Source: Promethearchaeota archaeon | GTDB taxonomy: Archaea; Asgardarchaeota; Lokiarchaeia; Sigyniarchaeales; SOKP01 | Reading direction: 5' to 3' | NCBI GenBank assembly: GCA_048938855.1 | Contig: JBHLLT010000006.1 | Coordinates: 41,986-105,985, forward strand | DNA: 64,000 nt | Shown here: positions 27,401-38,430 of the stretch, piece by piece | Numbering within the stretch: the first letter of the stretch is position 1 | How the letters are laid out: every line of letters begins with the position of its first letter | Notes under the pieces: generated by a model | What the model was told of the DNA's origin: nothing | The model's database searches: none | The model's input: the letters and a program-made list of their open reading frames with translations, nothing else | Translations under genes and position numbers: made by a program

Positions 27401-28030
27401 ATGAAAATGAGTCCTATAATAACGCATCAAGACGAGCTAGAGCTCGCCAAGAGTGAAAAGGAGCTTGTGTCCCAATTTAAGAAACTTGCAAAAGCTCAGC
27501 AAAATCTTATAAATTCTCAGATAAAATATGCAGAAAATATTGCTAATGCGAATAATATCCGAGAAATGCTAAACCGTACCTTTAGGGATGTACTAAAACA
27601 AATGCAAACTCTTGCCCGAGAACATAGGTCAAATATTAAAGATGAAGAAGTAAACTTATATAAAGATATAATTTCAAAAAATGACGGATATATTAAAGCA
27701 AATAACATTTACTTGAATGCAATAAAAGATCTTGCTGTACAAAAAGAGTATCTAGTAAAAAAAAAAGAAGAATTTGTAGATTCTTTAGCAGAACTCGCGA
27801 ATAAAAGATCAATAGTAATAAAGAAAGCATTAGATGCTGAAAAAGCGAAAAACAAATTAATAGATGGTGATAAATTAAATATCCTCGACCAACAACTAAA
27901 TGATGTCCAAAGAGATTTTGATAGAGCTCGAGATATATTCATAAAAAAAATATATCAGTTTACTGAGGTAAGAGATGAAATTAATAAGCTCTGGATTAAA
28001 TTAAAAGACACGATTACTGAATTGAGTTAG
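27401..28030 (+). CDS. All-helical coiled-coil protein, BAR-domain-like
   Basis: About 205 aa of long amphipathic helices; ALDAEKAKNKLIDGDKLNILDQQLNDVQRDFDRARDIF resembles the helix2-helix3 tip of SNX/Vps5-type BAR domains. Confidence 0.55.
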   Translation: MKMSPIITHQDELELAKSEKELVSQFKKLAKAQQNLINSQIKYAENIANANNIREMLNRTFRDVLKQMQTLAREHRSNIKDEEVNLYKDIISKNDGYIKANNIYLNAIKDLAVQKEYLVKKKEEFVDSLAELANKRSIVIKKALDAEKAKNKLIDGDKLNILDQQLNDVQRDFDRARDIFIKKIYQFTEVRDEINKLWIKLKDTITELS

Positions 28031-28157: not shown

Positions 28158-28598
28158 ATGTGTGCAGAAGAATTTGCAAGCTTCTTAGATAGTACTCGAA
28201 AAGCGCCATTGGAAGAAAAGTTAAATGCTTTTGGTGATATTATTGAAAAAATAATGTCTATCGTTCTACGTATCCCTGATTTAGTAGATCAATCTTTAGG
28301 CTCAGTAAATGAGAAAGTATCAAATTTACAAAACCAAATTAATGCTCTTAACAATCAATTATCATCAACGAGACCAGGAGGTGCTCCAGCAGCAGCAACA
28401 GCTCCGGTAGCAGCACGCACACCTGGAGGTCCATCTGGAGGTCCACCTGGAGGTCCGCCCCCACCCCCACCAGCTGGTCCACCTGGAGGTCCTGGTTCTG
28501 GTCCTGGTCCTAGTCGACCTGCAAGTCCCGTTTCACTTAGAGGAGCAATTATGGGAGAATTAAAACAGCTCTTCGCCAAGCGCCAACAAGGTTCATAA
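28158..28598 (+). CDS. Coiled-coil plus polyproline protein with C-terminal amphipathic basic helix
   Basis: GGPPGGPPPPPPAGPPGGP repeats; C-terminal SLRGAIMGELKQLFAKRQQ. Confidence 0.8.
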   Translation: MCAEEFASFLDSTRKAPLEEKLNAFGDIIEKIMSIVLRIPDLVDQSLGSVNEKVSNLQNQINALNNQLSSTRPGGAPAAATAPVAARTPGGPSGGPPGGPPPPPPAGPPGGPGSGPGPSRPASPVSLRGAIMGELKQLFAKRQQGS

Positions 28599-28753: not shown

Positions 28754-29341
28754 TTAGAATTCTAAAAACCCAGGATCATCAAATATATCTTCAATTTTCC
28801 TTTCTTTCTTAATCTTCGTATCACTCTCAGCAAATAAAGATTCTTCATCAGTTCGAACTCCTCGTTCTAATTCTTCAGTATCTAATTTTAAAAGCGCATC
28901 TTTTTCAAGCTGTTTATATTTTTCCGCTCGTATTTTCCAGTTATCGATTTCTTCTAAATTGACGTCATCTTCTTCTAACAAGATTGCTGCTTTAGATCTA
29001 CATAAATCTGATAAAATAGAATATGATAAAGCAAGTTCCCCCCATTCATTATCCTCTTTTAATCTAACAATTCGGCGTTCTAATCTTTGTAGCTCTTGAT
29101 CAGCATAGTATATATCAATGAAATCTCCAAAAGCATCGACTGGCTCAGAGATTGAATTTACTAAAACTTCCTTCGTAAGACCACAATTTCCACATTTTAC
29201 CGTTGCGAAGGCACCTTTCTTTTTGAGATCAGTGACTTTAACACTTTTTTCACCACACTCCGGGCATGTAAAAATTTTTGGGACTCTCTTTACTCGTTTT
29301 GGGCTTACTTGTTTACGTTTTCTTCTTCCCATTGATATCAC
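28754..29341 (-). CDS. Transcription elongation factor Elf1-like protein with helical/acidic C-terminal extension
   Basis: MGRRKRK...PKIFTCPECG...VKCGNCGL...EPVDAFGDFID. Confidence 0.88.
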   Translation of the reverse strand: MISMGRRKRKQVSPKRVKRVPKIFTCPECGEKSVKVTDLKKKGAFATVKCGNCGLTKEVLVNSISEPVDAFGDFIDIYYADQELQRLERRIVRLKEDNEWGELALSYSILSDLCRSKAAILLEEDDVNLEEIDNWKIRAEKYKQLEKDALLKLDTEELERGVRTDEESLFAESDTKIKKERKIEDIFDDPGFLEF

Positions 29342-29530: not shown

Positions 29531-30631
29531 ATGGAACATAATAATTTGACTTTAGAGTATGATAAAAACTTAATAAATAGCGTTCTAGATAACTTGGATA
29601 TGAGATACGTAATTCTTTTCCTATATGTCATAAGGAATGATTTATTTAAAGACTTAAACGACAAAAACATAATTGAGTCTTATGAAAGAGTGCTTATATT
29701 GGATGATATATACAAAAGTAATATTACAAAATTTTGGAATGAAGAATTTATAGAAATATATATAGATCTAGGATTGATAAAAAATATTCGAAGTTTGAGA
29801 GAATTTGAACAAAAAGAGGATGATTTTATAGTAAAAGTAGGAGAAGAAACAATCACTATTGAAAATGATACAATTTCAGTTCCAGATGATACTTTGTTTT
29901 TAATAATAAACAAGAAATTTAAATTTTTAAATAGAAGGAATTTTAATTTAGCCCTCACCAAGCTGAAAGGAGTAAGATGCGAAAAAAGCAATGTAATTCA
30001 TTCATTGATTCTTGAAATCGGTGAACATGATTATACTTTACCTGATGATTTTTATTATATCTTAGACCAGTATGGAAATATTTATCAATCAATTAAAATT
30101 GAAATTACTATTGAGGGGTTTTTTCAAAGATTCAAAGAAACTCAAGAAAAAATCAATGGATTTGTAAAAATTTTTGATCCAGTATTAAATAATAAATTAA
30201 TAATAAAAAAAATCAATAAAGCAATTGAAGAAAATAAAGATATTATACAATACCTTAAAGATGAGAAGGTAGATCTTTCTGATAAATTTAATACTGACAA
30301 GATTGATACAACTGCTGATGTGTTTAAGGAATGGAATTCAAAATTACTATCATTATTATCATTTAGAAATCAACTTGAAAATATTGAAGAAAAATTGATG
30401 GATTTAAAAAATATTTATTCTGGCAAAGAAAAAAAATACGGTTATTTAGAATTTATTGAGAGGATTTCTTTCAATGAAGAAGGAATTATAGATGATATTC
30501 AAAACTCATTGATTGAATTAAGAAAGCAATTGATTATGATTAATGAAAATGTCAATAGCTACACAGAAAAAGAGCTAAAATTATTAAATTTGGATTATGA
30601 AAGATTAATAATAATGAGTAGTGATGAATAA
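29531..30631 (+). CDS. Uncharacterised protein (operon gene 1; helical C-terminus)
   Basis: 366-aa ORF, first of eight co-oriented, tightly packed genes. Confidence 0.75.
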   Translation: MEHNNLTLEYDKNLINSVLDNLDMRYVILFLYVIRNDLFKDLNDKNIIESYERVLILDDIYKSNITKFWNEEFIEIYIDLGLIKNIRSLREFEQKEDDFIVKVGEETITIENDTISVPDDTLFLIINKKFKFLNRRNFNLALTKLKGVRCEKSNVIHSLILEIGEHDYTLPDDFYYILDQYGNIYQSIKIEITIEGFFQRFKETQEKINGFVKIFDPVLNNKLIIKKINKAIEENKDIIQYLKDEKVDLSDKFNTDKIDTTADVFKEWNSKLLSLLSFRNQLENIEEKLMDLKNIYSGKEKKYGYLEFIERISFNEEGIIDDIQNSLIELRKQLIMINENVNSYTEKELKLLNLDYERLIIMSSDE

Positions 30632-30633
30632 AT

Positions 30634-31602
30634 TTGAAATGTCCCGCCTGTGACATTGAAATGGAACCTTTGGTCGTTGGGATATTTCAATGTCCAAAAT
30701 GTAAGAAAATTGTTAAAGAAAAAGATTTAGATTTAAAAACAGAAGAAAGAAAGGAAACTCAATTTGGAGATTTTCAAGAAGGTGATTACTTTCATAAAAA
30801 TGCAAGTCTAAATAAGAATTATGAGATCTGCGAAAAGGGCATTACAATAAACAAAACAGAAAATCGATTATTTGCAGCTTTGATTTGTCATAGTGCATAT
30901 TTGAAAGATGAAAAATATGTGAGATTATCATGGTGGAAGAATTTTCAGCATGCTGGTATGTTTAAAGTTTATGATAAATATGTTTTAAATAATCTTATCA
31001 TTGCGTTGGGGAAGATTGATGATTCTTTTGATGATATCTGGAACTGGAGTGGAAAGTTTGGGAAACAAAAAAGCAAAACAGAAGAAGAGTTGGAAAAAGA
31101 AAAACAATTAGAGATAATAAAATATAGAATTCTTGAAAATAAAACATGTCCAAAATGCCAGAATAAGATGGATAAAATGAAATCCCATTATGAGTGTCAA
31201 CATTGTGGAGAAATTGTTATATTAGAAGGGTATAATCAACCAATCTTTAATATACTTCCAGAAAATATTGATCTGAGATTTCATGCTAATTTTCCAATAA
31301 ATTTTTACTTACCTGTGAGTGGTATAACTCTTAAATGGTTGATGGGGGAATGGAAAGCACTAGCAGTTATATATTCTAAGGATAATCCAAATAAAAAGTG
31401 GTTGAGATTTTATTGGTGGGTTCGCGATTTGAGTAACATTTTAAAGTACGGCCAAAGAGAGATGGGAAATGGTACTCAAATGGGTTGGAAAGCCCAGAAA
31501 GGGATGGCATCTCCAAATCTATATGATAAAAAGCTTGTAAAACCATTAATTAACGCGCTAAAAAATATCGCAAATGAATTAAATTGGACTATAAGTAATT
31601 AA
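30634..31602 (+). CDS. Tandem [Zn-ribbon + PC4/YdbC-like] repeat protein
   Basis: CPAC..CPKC followed by EKYVRLSWW; CPKC..CQHC followed by KKWLRFYWW...WKAQKG; internal duplication. Confidence 0.6.
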   Translation: MKCPACDIEMEPLVVGIFQCPKCKKIVKEKDLDLKTEERKETQFGDFQEGDYFHKNASLNKNYEICEKGITINKTENRLFAALICHSAYLKDEKYVRLSWWKNFQHAGMFKVYDKYVLNNLIIALGKIDDSFDDIWNWSGKFGKQKSKTEEELEKEKQLEIIKYRILENKTCPKCQNKMDKMKSHYECQHCGEIVILEGYNQPIFNILPENIDLRFHANFPINFYLPVSGITLKWLMGEWKALAVIYSKDNPNKKWLRFYWWVRDLSNILKYGQREMGNGTQMGWKAQKGMASPNLYDKKLVKPLINALKNIANELNWTISN

Positions 31603-31621
31603 AAGGATTAAAATTCAAAAA

Positions 31622-32761
31622 ATGACAGAAATCGAAGATTCAAGCTGGAACGGCCTTTTAAATAACTTTCAAGTGAATCTTGAAAAGGCAATAGAAGAAT
31701 TACAAAAACGAGATGTAGAAAATATTCCCGGTGCAAAAGAAGCTTTAGTCCAAAGATTAAACAATATGAAGCTTCATTTTCCTAAAAACAATGGCGATAT
31801 ATTGATAAAATCAATCAATGATAAGATACAAAATGCCTTTTTCCCTAATACAAAAAGTTTCTCTGTAGCCTTAAAAAAAATTTTAAAATCTAGAACCCAC
31901 GAGCAAGATTTTATTATCAATGAATTGTTAAATGGTTTCGTAACCTCTAAAGCAAATGCTATAGCAACTGGAACTCAAGGGCCGATAATAGATCGAATAG
32001 TTGAAGCATTCTCTAAAAGAAATGATTTTCATATCATTGATCACCAGTTTTATGCAATGTTTGGAGACCCTAATAAACCTCGTCATTATGTTAAAAAACA
32101 GCTTGAAGAGCTTTCAAATATGTTTGGATTGGTATCTAAAGAGCTTGTAGTTGAGAAGGATGTAAGAAGAAGCGAAGAAAAAGTATATGTTTTTTACACA
32201 TTTCCAGATGAAATCATAACTATTCTTGAAGAAAAATATTTAACTATTGATGAAGAATTGGGATATGCTTATGTTTCAGAAGAGTTTGATAGGAATGTTT
32301 TTATAAGTATGTTCTTGGCAAATTTAGCAATAAATCGGGATGATATTGATAAAATTGGTGGGGCATATACAATTAATGGGATTTCCGCAATATTTGCATT
32401 AATTTTACTTCTGAGTTTCATGCCAAAACTAAGTCTAGATGAGACTAATCCTATATTGAACGACCCTAATTTTAATGAGAAAAATATGAGTGTTATTCCA
32501 AAATCTTGGATGATGAAACAAGTATTAGAGCCATTATTTGAACCATTGATCAAAATTGTGGCTTATAGAATAGGAGGAGGATTATGGTTATCTAAAATAA
32601 TTGATTCAGAAATTAATAAAAAAATTCACAATCAAATAAGATTTCTCCTCAAGGATGTTAATAAATGGATATTAGGTAATCTTTGCAGAGTTGAAATACC
32701 AATTTTCATTGAAATCTCTAATATTTTTACTGAAATTTTAGTGGGGTATGATGAAAAATAA
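31622..32761 (+). CDS. Uncharacterised protein (operon gene 3)
   Basis: 379-aa ORF. Confidence 0.75.
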   Translation: MTEIEDSSWNGLLNNFQVNLEKAIEELQKRDVENIPGAKEALVQRLNNMKLHFPKNNGDILIKSINDKIQNAFFPNTKSFSVALKKILKSRTHEQDFIINELLNGFVTSKANAIATGTQGPIIDRIVEAFSKRNDFHIIDHQFYAMFGDPNKPRHYVKKQLEELSNMFGLVSKELVVEKDVRRSEEKVYVFYTFPDEIITILEEKYLTIDEELGYAYVSEEFDRNVFISMFLANLAINRDDIDKIGGAYTINGISAIFALILLLSFMPKLSLDETNPILNDPNFNEKNMSVIPKSWMMKQVLEPLFEPLIKIVAYRIGGGLWLSKIIDSEINKKIHNQIRFLLKDVNKWILGNLCRVEIPIFIEISNIFTEILVGYDEK

Positions 32762-32785
32762 AATTTTTTAAATTAGAGTGAAAAA

Positions 32786-34084
32786 ATGAGTTATAAAAAA
32801 AAAGCTACCAGAACAGTAAAACCGGGAAGGAAGAGAGAGAAATGGACTGACATTCTTCCCAGATACTTAACATTTTTAAGTCACATGCGTCCAATCCTAA
32901 GAGAAACAAGAAGAATAATTCTCGATTTAGATGCTGATTTATTACTTGATACAGAAATTTTAGATAAGATTCGTCAAGAAGAAGAAAAAAGGAATGTCCG
33001 AAAAGTAAGAGCACTTTCAGAATTTTCTGCTATGTATAGATCCAATATTTACGAGATTATTAAGGATTTTATAGTTAAATATCGTGAAAAGATCCCTACA
33101 ATAGATATAAAAGACTATATAGTAGAATTTCTTCATGAATCTATCGACGCTTTGAATGTTTTGCGTCATATAACTAATCCTGATGAGCTTAATTTAGAAA
33201 AAACTTACTTATATCAATTAGTTAAATTTATTGAAAATAAGCTATTTCCAAGAGGCGCAAACTTAAAAATAATATACAATAATTTATTACAGAATTCTTC
33301 TGAATTTTATGAATGCCAGCGCCATCTTTTACAACCTCACACATATTATCGAGAGAATTTAGAAAGTCCTGATTATTTTGAAATTCCTGGAATATCACCC
33401 AAAATATATCAAATCATCAATAATATCACATCCCTCTTTAACTTAGATCCCAATTTTGGAGAATTTCCAGAAAAAAAAAATCATGAGATTCCAATGATTT
33501 TAAAAAATGAAGTATTTTTACCATATATTGATTCAATTGCTAATGCTGAAGAAGATGCTTTAGAAAAAATTTCTGAACGAATTGGGTTACGGCTATTAGA
33601 TGAAATATTTATAGCACCACAAGAGGACTTTGCAGAAATGCTATTAGAAAATAACTTTTTACGTGAAAATAAACAATCAGATGGAACAATAAGACTATAT
33701 CCACAATTTAGTAACGAAACCTTAGTGCTATATTATCTAGCTTTTGCTTCTCAAAGAAGAGGTTTCTTGTCAAAGGAATTAGTTAATTGGATTTCAATGA
33801 ATTGTGCCTTCTTGATATATATGGGTATTTTAAAATGGAAATTATCGGATGAAAATATTTTTTACACTATCTTTAAAGATCTTCAAACTAATGAAAAAGT
33901 ACTTCCATATTTAATGAAGTTAATATGTTTTCCAAATTATTTAGGATTAGATAAAATGAAAATTAGAGATTCAATTCAATATCGAAAAGAAATTTTTAAT
34001 TTTATCGGATCCCAAATAGATAATCTTAAAATATTAATAAATGAAATTGCACTCTTTTGCGAAAGTTTTGAAAATAAACAATAA
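32786..34084 (+). CDS. Uncharacterised protein (operon gene 4)
   Basis: 432-aa ORF with a basic N-terminus. Confidence 0.75.
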   Translation: MSYKKKATRTVKPGRKREKWTDILPRYLTFLSHMRPILRETRRIILDLDADLLLDTEILDKIRQEEEKRNVRKVRALSEFSAMYRSNIYEIIKDFIVKYREKIPTIDIKDYIVEFLHESIDALNVLRHITNPDELNLEKTYLYQLVKFIENKLFPRGANLKIIYNNLLQNSSEFYECQRHLLQPHTYYRENLESPDYFEIPGISPKIYQIINNITSLFNLDPNFGEFPEKKNHEIPMILKNEVFLPYIDSIANAEEDALEKISERIGLRLLDEIFIAPQEDFAEMLLENNFLRENKQSDGTIRLYPQFSNETLVLYYLAFASQRRGFLSKELVNWISMNCAFLIYMGILKWKLSDENIFYTIFKDLQTNEKVLPYLMKLICFPNYLGLDKMKIRDSIQYRKEIFNFIGSQIDNLKILINEIALFCESFENKQ

Positions 34085-34109
34085 AAAAAAAATTATGAGT
34101 TGAAAAATT

Positions 34110-35219
34110 TTGCCAAAATCTATTAATGAAAAAGAAGATATGCTAGTATTCTCTGATGATGTTATTAAAGAACGACTTGGAAAGTATGGGGCAGTTTATT
34201 TTCCTTCAGATATAAAAGAAACAGTAGATGATATAATAGGAAATGAAAATATAAAAGAAATATTAAATGATTTTTTTAAAGCTCTAAAAAAATATAATGA
34301 ATTTATTGAAAATTTAAAGAATACAAAATTAGCTCCCAATCTTACTGTTCTTCTTTATGGGCCTCCTGGTACAGGAAAAACTTCATTAACAAGAGGATTT
34401 GCGAAGAAATTTGATATTCCAATTTGCGTTGTAGAGTCTGATAGGCTTGTTTCACCTTTGTTAGGAGATACTATTAAAAATATTCGCGGAGTCGTAGAAT
34501 TAGCAGCCGAAATTTCTAAGGAACGAAAGGCTTTTATATTATTTTTTGATGAGATTGATGCAATCGGTTCTGAAAGATCAAATATTCATGAGGTAGGAGA
34601 AATTAAACGAGCTGTAATCTCATTCCTCCAAGTTATTGATAGAACCAATTATGAAGGAGTACCTCTTGCTATTTTTGGAGCCACAAATCATCAGCATCAA
34701 CTAGACTCAGCGATTTGGCGTCGTTTTACTTTCCATTTTAAATTTGATTTTCCTGATTTTCATTTACGCAAAAAAATTATAGAATCCTTTATAAATAAAA
34801 TAAAAAATGCGAAAATCGGAGTTGACGATTTAATTTTTTCGAATTTAGATAGTGAGTATAAAAATATTCAATTAGTTTCAAAAGAATTAGAAACTAAATT
34901 AGGTAGGGTCATTTCTGAATTTGAAAATGGGCTTCTTTGGGAAGAATTTAACAAAAAAAGTAAATCAGTTGGTCTCCTAGAACTATCATTTGGGTATTCT
35001 GGGTCAGATATTGAAAGAGGGACAAGAGTCGCCTTATTAAAATCAATTAATACGGGAATATTAAATTATGATGATTTTTATAACTCTCTAAAGTTGGTTG
35101 GTGGTACTGCCATTCATGTTGAAAGACAGGATGTTTTAAGTGATGCAAAAAAACCTAGACTCTATACAAATTCATATAGCAATAGAAGAAATAAAACTCT
35201 TGGGCCTCCTGAAATATAG
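34110..35219 (+). CDS. Classic-clade AAA+ ATPase (single AAA domain)
   Basis: Walker A GPPGTGKT, Walker B ILFFDEID, second region of homology GATNHQHQLDSAIWRRF, GYSGSDIE. Confidence 0.93.
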   Translation: MPKSINEKEDMLVFSDDVIKERLGKYGAVYFPSDIKETVDDIIGNENIKEILNDFFKALKKYNEFIENLKNTKLAPNLTVLLYGPPGTGKTSLTRGFAKKFDIPICVVESDRLVSPLLGDTIKNIRGVVELAAEISKERKAFILFFDEIDAIGSERSNIHEVGEIKRAVISFLQVIDRTNYEGVPLAIFGATNHQHQLDSAIWRRFTFHFKFDFPDFHLRKKIIESFINKIKNAKIGVDDLIFSNLDSEYKNIQLVSKELETKLGRVISEFENGLLWEEFNKKSKSVGLLELSFGYSGSDIERGTRVALLKSINTGILNYDDFYNSLKLVGGTAIHVERQDVLSDAKKPRLYTNSYSNRRNKTLGPPEI

Positions 35220-35239
35220 AAATAATAAATCACATTGTA

Positions 35240-36289
35240 TTGAAGCTTATGAGTAATAACCAAATATTTAATCTTGAAAAAATAAAGGAACTGACAAGCC
35301 CAATTGAAGATCTACAGACAGAATTAAATAAAATAAATGATGTATCATCTAAGATAACAAAAAATATGGAACTCATTGAACATGAACCTTATGTTAAAGA
35401 ATTTTCAACCCAAATAATAATTATACAAGAGCTCCTACAAAATATAAAAATTAAAATTGAAGAAATTTCCAATACTAATCTCAATAGATTTTTAGATTTT
35501 CAAAATATCTTAATTATAAAATATAAAGAGCTTTTTAAGGATAGATTAAAAAGCCTGAGCTTAAATAGAGAATTAACAAAATTTATTGGATTAAATTTAG
35601 TTCAAAACAAACAAATCAGTAAAATCATCGAATATGTTTCATTTATTCCCTCAATTGAAATTTCGAATTGGCTAGAAATTATAGATTCATTAAAATATAA
35701 CACGATTTTCTTAAAATCTATCAAAAAGGCTAAGAATTATTATAGCACATTAATTCAATTAAAGCTTAAGGAAGAATTAAGTAGAATTCCAGAAGAAGTT
35801 CCTCCAGAATTAATAGTTGATTATGAGAATTTTTTCATAGAGAATCCTACTATAACATTTAATGAATTTTTTCAAACTATTGAAAAACAATTAACCAAAC
35901 AGGAATTAAAAGAAAAAAGAGCAATTATTGAAGAAGCTAAAGAGAAAGAAAAACTAGAGAAACTAAAAAAAAGGCAAGAAGAACAAAAAACAGCATATGA
36001 AAATTATTTAAAGCTTTCTGATAGTGAATTTAAAAGGCTTACAAGGAAAAAAAGTAGAGAAAAATTAAGCAATATTTCCAAAAAAACTAATGAGAATAGT
36101 TCCATTGAAATTAGTGAAGAAATTTCTGAAAAAATTAAGAAATTTAAGTCGCAATTTGAAAAAAGCTTTAATGAAAAGTATATGATACAAAAAGATGAAG
36201 ATAAAGATCCAATTGATTTAATTCGAGAAAGAAAGAAAAAAAAAGAGAAGGAATATAAACAATTTGAAGATCATTTTGAAAACAAATAA
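35240..36289 (+). CDS. Coiled-coil/helical uncharacterised protein
   Basis: 349-aa ORF with K/E-rich heptads. Confidence 0.75.
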   Translation: MKLMSNNQIFNLEKIKELTSPIEDLQTELNKINDVSSKITKNMELIEHEPYVKEFSTQIIIIQELLQNIKIKIEEISNTNLNRFLDFQNILIIKYKELFKDRLKSLSLNRELTKFIGLNLVQNKQISKIIEYVSFIPSIEISNWLEIIDSLKYNTIFLKSIKKAKNYYSTLIQLKLKEELSRIPEEVPPELIVDYENFFIENPTITFNEFFQTIEKQLTKQELKEKRAIIEEAKEKEKLEKLKKRQEEQKTAYENYLKLSDSEFKRLTRKKSREKLSNISKKTNENSSIEISEEISEKIKKFKSQFEKSFNEKYMIQKDEDKDPIDLIRERKKKKEKEYKQFEDHFENK

Positions 36290-36310
36290 TTAAAACAAAA
36301 GGTAGGTAAT

Positions 36311-37924
36311 ATTTCTAATAGTAACTTTAAGATTTCTATTGGTTCAAAAGAAATTTTAATTAAGGATAGATTTACATTAATTAACGGAAAAATTAAAAAA
36401 AACTTACTTAGCGAATATAAAGATGATATCTTTCTTGAGATATCTCAAGACTTAAACAATATTCCTCTCTTAAAATTTATAGAATTCCTACAGGAAGAAA
36501 CTCAAGAATTTCAATTTCTGTCAAAAGCTAATGATCTCTTATATTTTTTAAAAGAATATATTAACACCATACAAAACAATATAGCTATTTCATCTCAATA
36601 TAGAGATATTATTCATAACTTATTGCTCATAATTCAACACATTGAATTCTTAAAAAAGGAAGAATCTTTGTCAAAAGAGTTAGAATTATCAACTCAATAT
36701 AAAAAATCAAGCGATATTGTAGCTATTAAGGATTTAATGAATAAATTAAATGAATCTTTAATCATAAACACGAAAAAATTAAATCTTTTTGAAGAAGACT
36801 TTTTTCAACGTAAAAACAAAATTAATAAAATCAAAAACACAATTAAAGAGTACAATTTAAGAATAGAACAATTAAATAACCAAAAGAAGCAATGCTTTAG
36901 CCAAATTAACCGTATTACTAGAGAAATGGCAGGTGATAAACCTGCATCTAAAGATGATATTAAAGTTGATTTAATAGAATTTGAGGGAAATTTAACAAAT
37001 GCAGAAAAAATACGAGCGTTTCAAAAGAAAGCAAAAGAAATTCAATCCGAAATTAAAGATCTAGAATCAAAAAGAAACCAAACTCAATTAAAACTAGAAG
37101 ATCTTCTCCCTCTTTTTGAAATATTTGAAAAAGATCATCAATCATTATTAAATATAATCAGTTCTGATAAAAAGAGGATTGATGAGTTAGAAGTAGAACT
37201 CAGAAATAAATTAAAAGAAGATATAAATACAGAAATAGAAAATATTGATCAAATAATTTTAAATTCTCTAAGGTCCTCAAAAGAGATTAAAAGTGATCTT
37301 GAAAAAATAGAGAATGAATTAAATAAGCAAACCCTTTCTGATAATTATTTCAACCCGCAAAATCCGTATGATCTATCTACTGTTATTAATAATCTTACTA
37401 AACTCTATGAATACATAACCAAAAATGAATCAAAGATCATTATTTCTAACAGTGAAAAAGGAGTTACCGATTGTCTCAAACAATTTAAGGAATTAGAAAC
37501 TTCTCTTTCAAATATAGAATCTATAATAAATAACTTTTTAAAAGAGATTAATGTAGATTCCCAATTTAGAATAGTATTAAGTGAAGATCAAAGGAATCTT
37601 TTCATAAATATATTATTTAATAGAAGAGAAAAACCAAAGGCCAGATTTGAGGAATTAACTACTCCAGAAAAAATTTTTTTCATTATAGTTTTCTATCTCT
37701 CAATGAAACTCCATACTAATAAAACTAATATAATTTTTTCAAATATGTCACTCTTAAATCAATATAATAAAGCAGGTTCTATTTTTCGAACTATCAAAAA
37801 AATATTACCTCTTTTTGAAGGGAATAATAATCTTTTCAGATTTAAATTAATATTTATTTTACCTAACTTAGAATTGAAAAAAACTATTAAAAATTTAAAA
37901 ATTATAACAATGCAAGAGAGTTGA
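36311..37924 (+). CDS. SMC/Rad50-like coiled-coil protein with degenerate ATPase head (probable ATT start upstream of the track's 36623)
   Basis: The frame is open from 36290 with no ATG/GTG/TTG until 36623; AGGTAGGT precedes ATT at 36311. N-terminal RFTLING, long coiled coil, C-terminal FEELTTPEK.FFII.F.LS resembling the LSGGEK signature helix. Confidence 0.6.
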   Translation: MSNSNFKISIGSKEILIKDRFTLINGKIKKNLLSEYKDDIFLEISQDLNNIPLLKFIEFLQEETQEFQFLSKANDLLYFLKEYINTIQNNIAISSQYRDIIHNLLLIIQHIEFLKKEESLSKELELSTQYKKSSDIVAIKDLMNKLNESLIINTKKLNLFEEDFFQRKNKINKIKNTIKEYNLRIEQLNNQKKQCFSQINRITREMAGDKPASKDDIKVDLIEFEGNLTNAEKIRAFQKKAKEIQSEIKDLESKRNQTQLKLEDLLPLFEIFEKDHQSLLNIISSDKKRIDELEVELRNKLKEDINTEIENIDQIILNSLRSSKEIKSDLEKIENELNKQTLSDNYFNPQNPYDLSTVINNLTKLYEYITKNESKIIISNSEKGVTDCLKQFKELETSLSNIESIINNFLKEINVDSQFRIVLSEDQRNLFINILFNRREKPKARFEELTTPEKIFFIIVFYLSMKLHTNKTNIIFSNMSLLNQYNKAGSIFRTIKKILPLFEGNNNLFRFKLIFILPNLELKKTIKNLKIITMQES

Positions 37925-38430
37925 AGCAATTGACAATTAATAGTAATGAAATTAGTGAAACGATAAGAAACATCACAAAATTAATTTTAACAAATCCTCA
38001 AAAAATTATTCGAGAAGAAGATCTTAAAAATTTAAGTAAAGATTTCAATTTTGAAGAAATTATGAGTGATGTTTACTTAAATTTAAGAAATGTGGGTTTG
38101 GATCTTATTAAAACTACATTTTTAGAACAAAAATATTATATCCTTACATCTGAGGGAAAAGATGATAATATTACACCATCTCAGTATGGTACGTTAGCTT
38201 TAATAATCGCATTAAGTAAAGAAGTCGATGAGAACATTAAAATTGAGGATTTAAAAGAAATTTTTGAGGAAGCATGGGACACAGATGTTCAATTTTTAAT
38301 TGATAATGACTATATAAGAAAGTTTGATGAATTAGGAATAATCAAAATATCTCCATTAGGAAAGGCAATTATGAAGAACATTATTATGGATATTGATTTA
38401 AAAAATTTATTAAATTTCTTTTTAGAATAA
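37921..38430 (+). CDS. Tandem winged-helix KITE-like protein (MAGE/Nse3/ScpB-like)
   Basis: IIREEDL..., FEEIMSDVYLNLRNVGLDLIK...YYILTS, YGTLALIIAL, FLIDNDYI..ISPLGK; overlaps the stop codon of the SMC-like gene. Confidence 0.6.
   Translation: MKQLTINSNEISETIRNITKLILTNPQKIIREEDLKNLSKDFNFEEIMSDVYLNLRNVGLDLIKTTFLEQKYYILTSEGKDDNITPSQYGTLALIIALSKEVDENIKIEDLKEIFEEAWDTDVQFLIDNDYIRKFDELGIIKISPLGKAIMKNIIMDIDLKNLLNFFLE

Follow-up and report, generated by a model that had tools for sequence, protein, structure and literature searches.

Does an SMC-like protein that has lost its own ATPase still belong to a chromosome machine, and what does an AAA ATPase do beside it? This question is raised by an eight-gene operon (g1-g8, positions 29531-38430) in a 64,000-nucleotide (nt) stretch, hereafter the window, of a Promethearchaeota (Lokiarchaeia) genome (assembly GCA_048938855.1, contig JBHLLT010000006.1, positions 41,986-105,985 of the forward strand). 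A preliminary description had proposed an undescribed operon with an intact AAA ATPase, a dead-headed SMC-like protein and a KITE-like protein, in which the AAA ATPase may supply the energy that the SMC lacks. In our analysis, g7 is a pseudo-ATPase SMC, g8 is a KITE of Nse1/Nse3 type, and AAA ATPases of the same clade as g5 also stand beside intact SMCs in related operons. We give an even chance to the reading that the operon is a domesticated, non-extruding SMC5/6-type derivative, forming a DNA-bound scaffold that is remodelled by the AAA ATPase in a housekeeping role; the SMC5/6-type ancestry itself is well supported. All eight open reading frames were found on the + strand at the following positions of the window:

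g1, 29531-30631, + strand: 366 amino acids (aa), without known family
g2, 30634-31602, + strand: 322 aa, a unit of Zn ribbon and Trp/Arg-rich beta domain present twice
g3, 31622-32761, + strand: 379 aa, without known family, paralogue of g4
g4, 32786-34084, + strand: 432 aa, without known family, paralogue of g3
g5, 34110-35219, + strand: 369 aa, intact classic-clade AAA ATPase
g6, 35240-36289, + strand: 349 aa, helical in its N-terminal part, charged and basic in its C-terminal part
g7, 36311-37924, + strand: 537 aa, pseudo-ATPase SMC with a probable ATT start
g8, 37921-38430, + strand: 169 aa, KITE tandem winged-helix protein of Nse1/Nse3 (MAGE) type

The intergenic gaps from g1 to g8 are 2, 19, 24, 25, 20, 21 and -4 nt, where the 21-nt gap between g6 and g7 presupposes the g7 start at ATT 36311; the co-oriented, tight packing proposed earlier was thus confirmed, with a spacing of -4 to 25 nt. 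Each gene is present once in the source genome, the GC content of the operon equals that of the remaining window, and the operon is flanked by elf1, upstream and divergent, and by a Sm-like gene, downstream and convergent, both named by us from sequence features. A promoter and terminator scan with models of bacterial type gave chance-level signal. No description of the operon was found in the literature searched, which had most subscription journals outside its coverage, and within that scope the operon stands as undescribed. A study of archaeal SMC5/6-related SMC-kleisin-kite operons (van Hooff et al., 10.1101/2024.01.07.573240) reports two complexes and a possible third in Hodarchaeales; its main text does not mention an AAA, and neither an AAA-linked form nor an ATPase-dead one is described there.

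Predicted products of the operon

In the predicted model of g7 (predicted local distance difference test score (pLDDT) of 86.7), a split ABC-type alpha/beta head is joined by a short antiparallel coiled-coil arm, as in SMC5/6-related proteins, and the arm appears to turn at a short disordered, low-confidence linker of ~25 residues at its apex. The model has no hinge, and no CxxC of a zinc hook is present at the arm apex. The head is dead, as had been supposed: Walker A, signature and Walker B were each found in none of 67 homologues (0/67), and are replaced by GK[IF]KK, LTTPE and IIFSN, respectively. Since the LTTPE replacement is retained in 65 of the 67, this surface of g7 probably still has a job. 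Lacking ATP sites and a hinge, g7 is predicted from SMC biochemistry to be unable to drive loop extrusion. Foldseek matched the model to Rad50, Smc5/6, MukB, JetC and LmuB, and VIA-align placed the Smc6/Smc5 heads first (Z 14.1, root-mean-square deviation (rmsd) 8.8, 293 aligned), with Rad50 at Z 11.7 (rmsd 3.6, 194 aligned), scores of a kind that coiled coils inflate.

No stop interrupts the g7 reading frame from 36290 onward, its homology begins at the N-terminus, and the first ATG, GTG or TTG lies only at 36623. The ATT at 36311-36313 is preceded by an AGGT motif, and in four loci (L003, L005, L064, L072) an in-frame stop lies just upstream of the equivalent codon, which makes ATT 36311 the probable start. 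We rejected the idea that a frameshift or a misassembly separates g6 from g7, as the frame is open and relatives have the same layout. In 37 of 69 loci g7 has no canonical start near the g6 stop, and gene callers will truncate it in these relatives, which are over half of those compared.

The predicted g8 model (pLDDT 88.1) bears out the KITE-like tandem winged helices. Its best matches are Nse1 and Nse3/MAGE (Z 10.2; 7dg2_A, rmsd 3.6, 149 aligned), above ScpB (Z 7.6-7.9) and above the ESCRT-II subunits, and its ESM Atlas neighbours are archaeal clusters and eukaryotic Nse1. An SMC head and tandem winged helices are therefore both seen in the predicted folds. We hold these folds and the dead motifs with high confidence, as we do the paralogy, the distribution and the homology of g1-g5 and g8 to an intact module that are described below. 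In a closed genome (G262), the g8 KITE (L125:15895-16647) has a long C-terminal KKKTT-repeat tail that is linker-histone-tail-like.

The g5 protein is the intact classic AAA ATPase that had been proposed (Pfam AAA, 7.7e-26), with invariant Walker A, Walker B and arginine fingers and a non-aromatic pore loop 1 (SPLLGDT). Only ~35 residues precede the AAA domain, and there is no N-terminal adaptor domain. Its best models are IetA (1e-58 in PADLOC, 5e-51 in NCBIfam), followed by TRIP13 (5e-18). It thus resembles the IetA and TRIP13-type remodellers in being a short classic AAA without a substrate domain of its own, but it is unlike IetAS in that it scores far under the IetA cut-off (174 bits against 510) and no S8 protease or HORMA partner was detected in the operon; nor was any protease domain found among the eight genes. 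It branches apart from the Vps4 of the same genome and, unlike the ESCRT ATPase, is not an MIT-bearing AAA of the Vps4/CdvC clade.

Among the remaining products, g3 and g4 are paralogues (95.6%, E 1.2e-8) that could plausibly form a heterodimer, and g4 has only 46 relatives among 1.84 billion representative proteins. The Zn-ribbon repeat expected for g2 was recovered as an internal tandem duplication of a Zn-ribbon and beta-rich unit (hhalign 96.9%), which probably binds single-stranded nucleic acid. By eye, g1 has a winged-helix-like segment with a near-invariant Cys150/His157 pair, followed by a helical bundle; such segments in g1, g3 and g4 are our reading of the alignments. Searches of Pfam, PADLOC, NCBIfam, PDB sequences and the ESM Atlas returned nothing usable for g1, g3, g4 or g6, so that g1, g3/g4 and g6 represent conserved protein families without known relatives. 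Homologues of g3/g4 also occur elsewhere, as a tandem array of 359, 711, 347 and 706 aa with no AAA or SMC adjacent (L139:50-6626), and immediately behind the two genes of a ubiquitin-like conjugation pair, one ThiF/E2-like and the other JAB (L140:365-5391).

Related operons with an intact SMC

Relatives of the operon with an intact SMC were found in two genomes (G212, G297), a Helarchaeota assembly and several metagenomic contigs; the intact operons include loci L127, L129, L137 (the Helarchaeota assembly), L138, L141, L142 and L144. Their order is g1, sometimes g2, g3, g4, the AAA ATPase, a hinged SMC (1,050-1,200 aa), a multi-winged-helix protein (~300 aa), a kleisin candidate and a g8 homologue (~170 aa); g3-g4-AAA is usually preceded by g1, and g2 is present in L144, L145 and L129. 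The ATP motifs are present in 7/7 of these SMCs and the hinge motif was matched in 6/7. The SMCs form one clade (support 100/100), and their profile favours Smc6 (4e-43) over prokaryotic Smc (2e-18), a margin that is slim when single sequences are searched; the affinity to Smc6 is read from scores of profiles and folds, as the trees were built without eukaryotic Smc5/6 sequences. The form is rare, with one clear case (G366) in ~245 genomes outside two Lokiarchaeia families by a broad g4 profile.

First, the AAA ATPases connect the two forms. The g5 family and the intact-form AAAs make up one clade apart from Cdc48, PAN and Vps4 (support 95/89), inside which the g5 family is monophyletic. The proposal that the AAA ATPase stands in as energy source for the dead SMC was therefore not upheld: the same clade already accompanies live SMCs, so it was not recruited to replace a dead motor. 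As the AAA ATPase predates the loss of the SMC motor, it has a task of its own. Second, one locus (L143), which groups with L127 and L129, encodes a live AAA and a truncated kleisin together with an SMC of 1,034 aa whose hinge is present but whose motifs are dead; by its sequence this is a second, independent loss of the SMC motor with the AAA kept, and the two losses suggest that the task of the AAA is the indispensable one. Third, the linkage of g1, g3, g4 and the AAA to an SMC and a KITE persists in both forms at ~20-25% protein identity and through an inversion. This inversion was seen in G212, a single-contig genome in which the intact module occupies the resident locus in inverted orientation, with a g2 of resident type on one side and a remnant of g8 on the other; no g7 was found in this genome, which suggests that the module replaced the resident operon in place. 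Finally, a g8 profile built from the home family only scored three intact-form KITEs above all other kites (1.3e-14, 1.2e-7 and 2.1e-5).

Does one of the eight genes encode a kleisin, as had been suggested? The intact-form candidate, ~290 aa long, matches Nse4_C weakly (E 0.0014). No homologue of it was detected among the eight, the profiles of g1, g3, g4 and g6 reaching at best 1.7% against it, and no kleisin was identified among g1-g8. We rejected g1 as a substitute, since it coexists with the candidate in intact operons. The part of the suggestion that could still apply concerns g6, which is found only in the dead-SMC form and may serve as a kleisin; a complex prediction of g6(1-260), g7 and g8 scored 0.64 against 0.55 for a control with g7 replaced, returned no answer and is not used as evidence. 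We also rejected g6 as the missing half of a split SMC, because it has no profile match to the intact SMC and g7 holds both head lobes.

Distribution, mechanism and competing readings

The operon was compared across 80 related loci from Promethearchaeota (Lokiarchaeia) assemblies, and the order g1-g8 is kept, up to contig ends, across them. In the home family the flanks are syntenic as well, so that the order there says little by itself. In a second family the flanks differ and the order is unchanged (L111, L125, L134), which answers in the affirmative whether the genes are syntenic in relatives. The g3 gene is single-copy and present in 112/126 and 12/13 genomes of the two families (~90%), and in 0/11 genomes of other families in the same class; g4 and g8 follow the same pattern in the phylum sample, and the operon in its dead-SMC form was found in no other group sampled. 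The g3-negative genomes examined mostly have assembly gaps at the locus: elf1 is broken at a contig end in G071 and G229, and is missing along with g3 in G250 and G231. The operon is also present in a closed genome of 4,324,194 bp. Median identities across loci are 84% for g3, 84% for g4 (a value inflated by the use of g4 to select the loci), 76% for g2 and g5, 72% for g8, 68% for g1, 51% for g6 and 45% for g7, compared to 66% for pelota and 75% for elf1; g3 and g4 are thus more conserved than either. That the operon is single-copy, near-universal and fixed in its locus speaks for a core role rather than for patchy defence.

In three genomes (G008, G195, G245) an island separates g5 from g6 (L116:7855-15287, L117:3445-17020 and L135:12578-19883, respectively). 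Each island carries an SMC-like ATPase of 656-672 aa after g5; those of G008 and G195 also have, ahead of g6, a gene resembling PAPS reductase and another elf1-like copy, with a C5 methylase in G008 and TGT/DUF5591 genes in G195. Possibly this is an integrative DNA-modification island. A divergent version in G292 (L128:4866-15583) has g2 ahead of g1, an extra 468-aa gene ahead of g3 and a g7 of 686 aa.

In the mechanism that we propose, a fuller SMC5/6-type module survives patchily in Asgard archaea, and in the Loki lineage the SMC would have lost its ATP motifs and hinge, the kleisin and the multi-winged-helix protein would have been lost, and g6 would have appeared. The g7 protein would then be a passive structural rod on DNA together with the KITE g8, perhaps bridged by g6; g2 with g1, g3 and g4 would recognise the nucleic-acid substrate and serve as adaptor; and the g5 hexamer, as the only motor, would load, open or strip the assembly by pulling on a subunit. 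TRIP13 is an AAA that works through an adaptor. We infer that the products form one physical complex, that DNA is its substrate, what the AAA acts on and that the assembly serves a housekeeping role in chromosome maintenance. The stronger version, a novel class of chromosome machine in which an SMC5/6-derived scaffold dispenses with ABC-type ATP cycling and is driven by the AAA unfoldase via g3/g4, is tentative and clearly the less probable.

Compared to the archaeal and eukaryotic SMC5/6 systems (Smc5/6-Nse1-Nse3-Nse4), the operon is alike in its g7 head (closest to Smc6/Smc5), its Nse1/Nse3-type KITE, and its intact relatives with Smc6-like sequence, hinge, probable Nse4-like kleisin and SMC-kleisin-kite order; it is unlike them in that g7 lacks both ATP motifs and hinge, none of the genes was identified as a kleisin, and there are six additional genes, one of them that of the AAA. 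Several points weigh against the proposed derivation. The split in three genomes means that the halves g1-g5 and g6-g8 need not share a transcript. The grouping of g8 with the intact-form KITEs is weakly supported in the tree (81/76), and the match of the intact-form kleisin candidate to Nse4_C lies below the Pfam cut-off (19.3 against 26 bits). Lastly, g7 cannot be linked by sequence to the intact-form SMC in particular: other non-canonical Asgard SMCs match its C-terminal head with equal or higher scores, its branch is long, and a tree of C-terminal heads could not place it, so that its descent from the intact-form SMC is read from gene position.

The alternative that survives best is defence against plasmids or viruses with a Wadjet- or Lamassu-like logic, where g7-g8 would sense foreign DNA and the AAA would activate or release an effector among g1, g3 and g4. 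Smc5/6, Wadjet and Lamassu restrict extrachromosomal DNA (PMC10586767), the nearest model of g5 is the anti-phage ATPase IetA, one g3/g4 pair adjoins ThiF/E2 and JAB genes, and the intact form has a patchy distribution, is divergent and seems to have taken the place of the resident copy in G212 and G297. The dead-SMC form, however, is single-copy at a fixed locus with the near-complete distribution given above, and its g3 and g4, ~84% identical across loci, are unlike the sporadic, divergent defence SMCs; moreover, no effector domain was found in the operon by Pfam or PADLOC. Known systems fit in part. Wadjet (JetABCD/MksBEFG) likewise has SMC, KITE and winged-helix proteins in one operon, and the intact form is similarly patchy, but no JetA, JetB or JetD match was obtained, the JetD Toprim nuclease having no Pfam or PADLOC match among the eight genes, the JetC similarity is at coiled-coil level only (E 0.008), and JetC is active, hinged and full-length whereas g7 is not. 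In Lamassu (LmuABC) the SMC-like protein is short, lacks a hinge and has an altered Walker B (PMC10586767), and LmuB is among the Foldseek matches of g7, but PADLOC gave no Lmu match for g7, Lamassu includes an effector and neither a KITE nor an AAA, and every ATP motif is lost from g7, which also lacks a zinc hook. The ASRP family (ClsN, Sph; PMC9389158) comprises archaeal SMC-related proteins without a canonical hinge, but these retain Walker A/B and mostly a zinc hook, neither of which is found in g7. We consider defence unlikely, if the most credible of the alternatives.

It is less likely still that the operon holds two separable modules, with g1-g5 an AAA-driven remodeller of nucleic acid or protein and g6-g8 a chromatin or structural unit that is linked to it but works independently. 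In the three island-bearing genomes the break falls precisely between g5 and g6, the L139 array has g3/g4 homologues without an AAA or SMC, and evolution has been much faster in g6 and g7 (51% and 45%) than in g3-g5. What speaks against it is the persistent linkage of g1, g3, g4 and the AAA to SMC and KITE in both forms, already described.

The source genome has two further SMC operons, a canonical Smc-ScpA-ScpB operon (C45) and a second SMC-kleisin-kite operon (C49), and with ordinary SMC work covered by both, the third system may have been freed to diverge. The C49 operon encodes a live SMC of 1,156 aa and is preceded by a probable dead AAA (L146:7553-8824, - strand, corresponding to G000:C49:280552-281823), whose Walker A reads ASPGTDIL and which has no NCBIfam match. 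Degenerate AAA-like genes also precede the SMC in family f7 (L164, L166), with a near-intact AAA in L163. A dead AAA with a live SMC is the reciprocal of the live AAA and dead SMC of g5 and g7. The least probable alternative is that g7 is an accessory or decoy subunit pairing with the live C49 SMC in an asymmetric, half-active heterodimer, with g5 complementing the probable dead AAA: this reciprocal operon in the same genome and in f7, the best score of the g7 C-head profile against the C49 SMC group (hhalign 81.8%) and the strict conservation of LTTPE speak for it, but g7 lacks the hinge, the usual site of SMC dimerisation, the 1,156-aa SMC has a far longer arm than g7, C49-type operons occur in lineages where g1-g8 was not found, and the only C49-type AAA that is intact does not fall within the g5 clade.

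What defines an SMC complex is an ATPase of its own, together with a hinge and a kleisin. In this lineage, strong selection has preserved an SMC and a KITE without that ATPase and hinge, and an AAA motor stands beside them. The natural intermediates (intact, full-length dead, short dead) allow a comparative test of SMC5/6-type roles besides loop extrusion, and the intact form enlarges the Asgard inventory that bears on the origin of eukaryotic Smc5/6 by a Smc6-like lineage, which has a probable Nse4 together with a kite of Nse1/3 type. If the AAA-driven scaffold is real, it would be a core part of the chromosome biology of Loki-type Asgard archaea, and the intact form, with its nine to ten genes, would represent a lineage of AAA-coupled SMC5/6 that has gone unrecognised.

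Neighbouring genes in the window

Upstream of the operon, the elf1 gene (28754-29341, - strand) encodes an Elf1-like zinc-ribbon protein with a C-terminal extension of ~110 residues that is conserved in relatives. Two further conserved proteins are encoded nearby, a 209-aa all-helical protein (27401-28030) and, after it, a 146-aa protein (28158-28598) with a proline/glycine-rich stretch and a short C-terminal helix, which we take to resemble a WH2 motif. Both are possibly cytoskeletal regulators.

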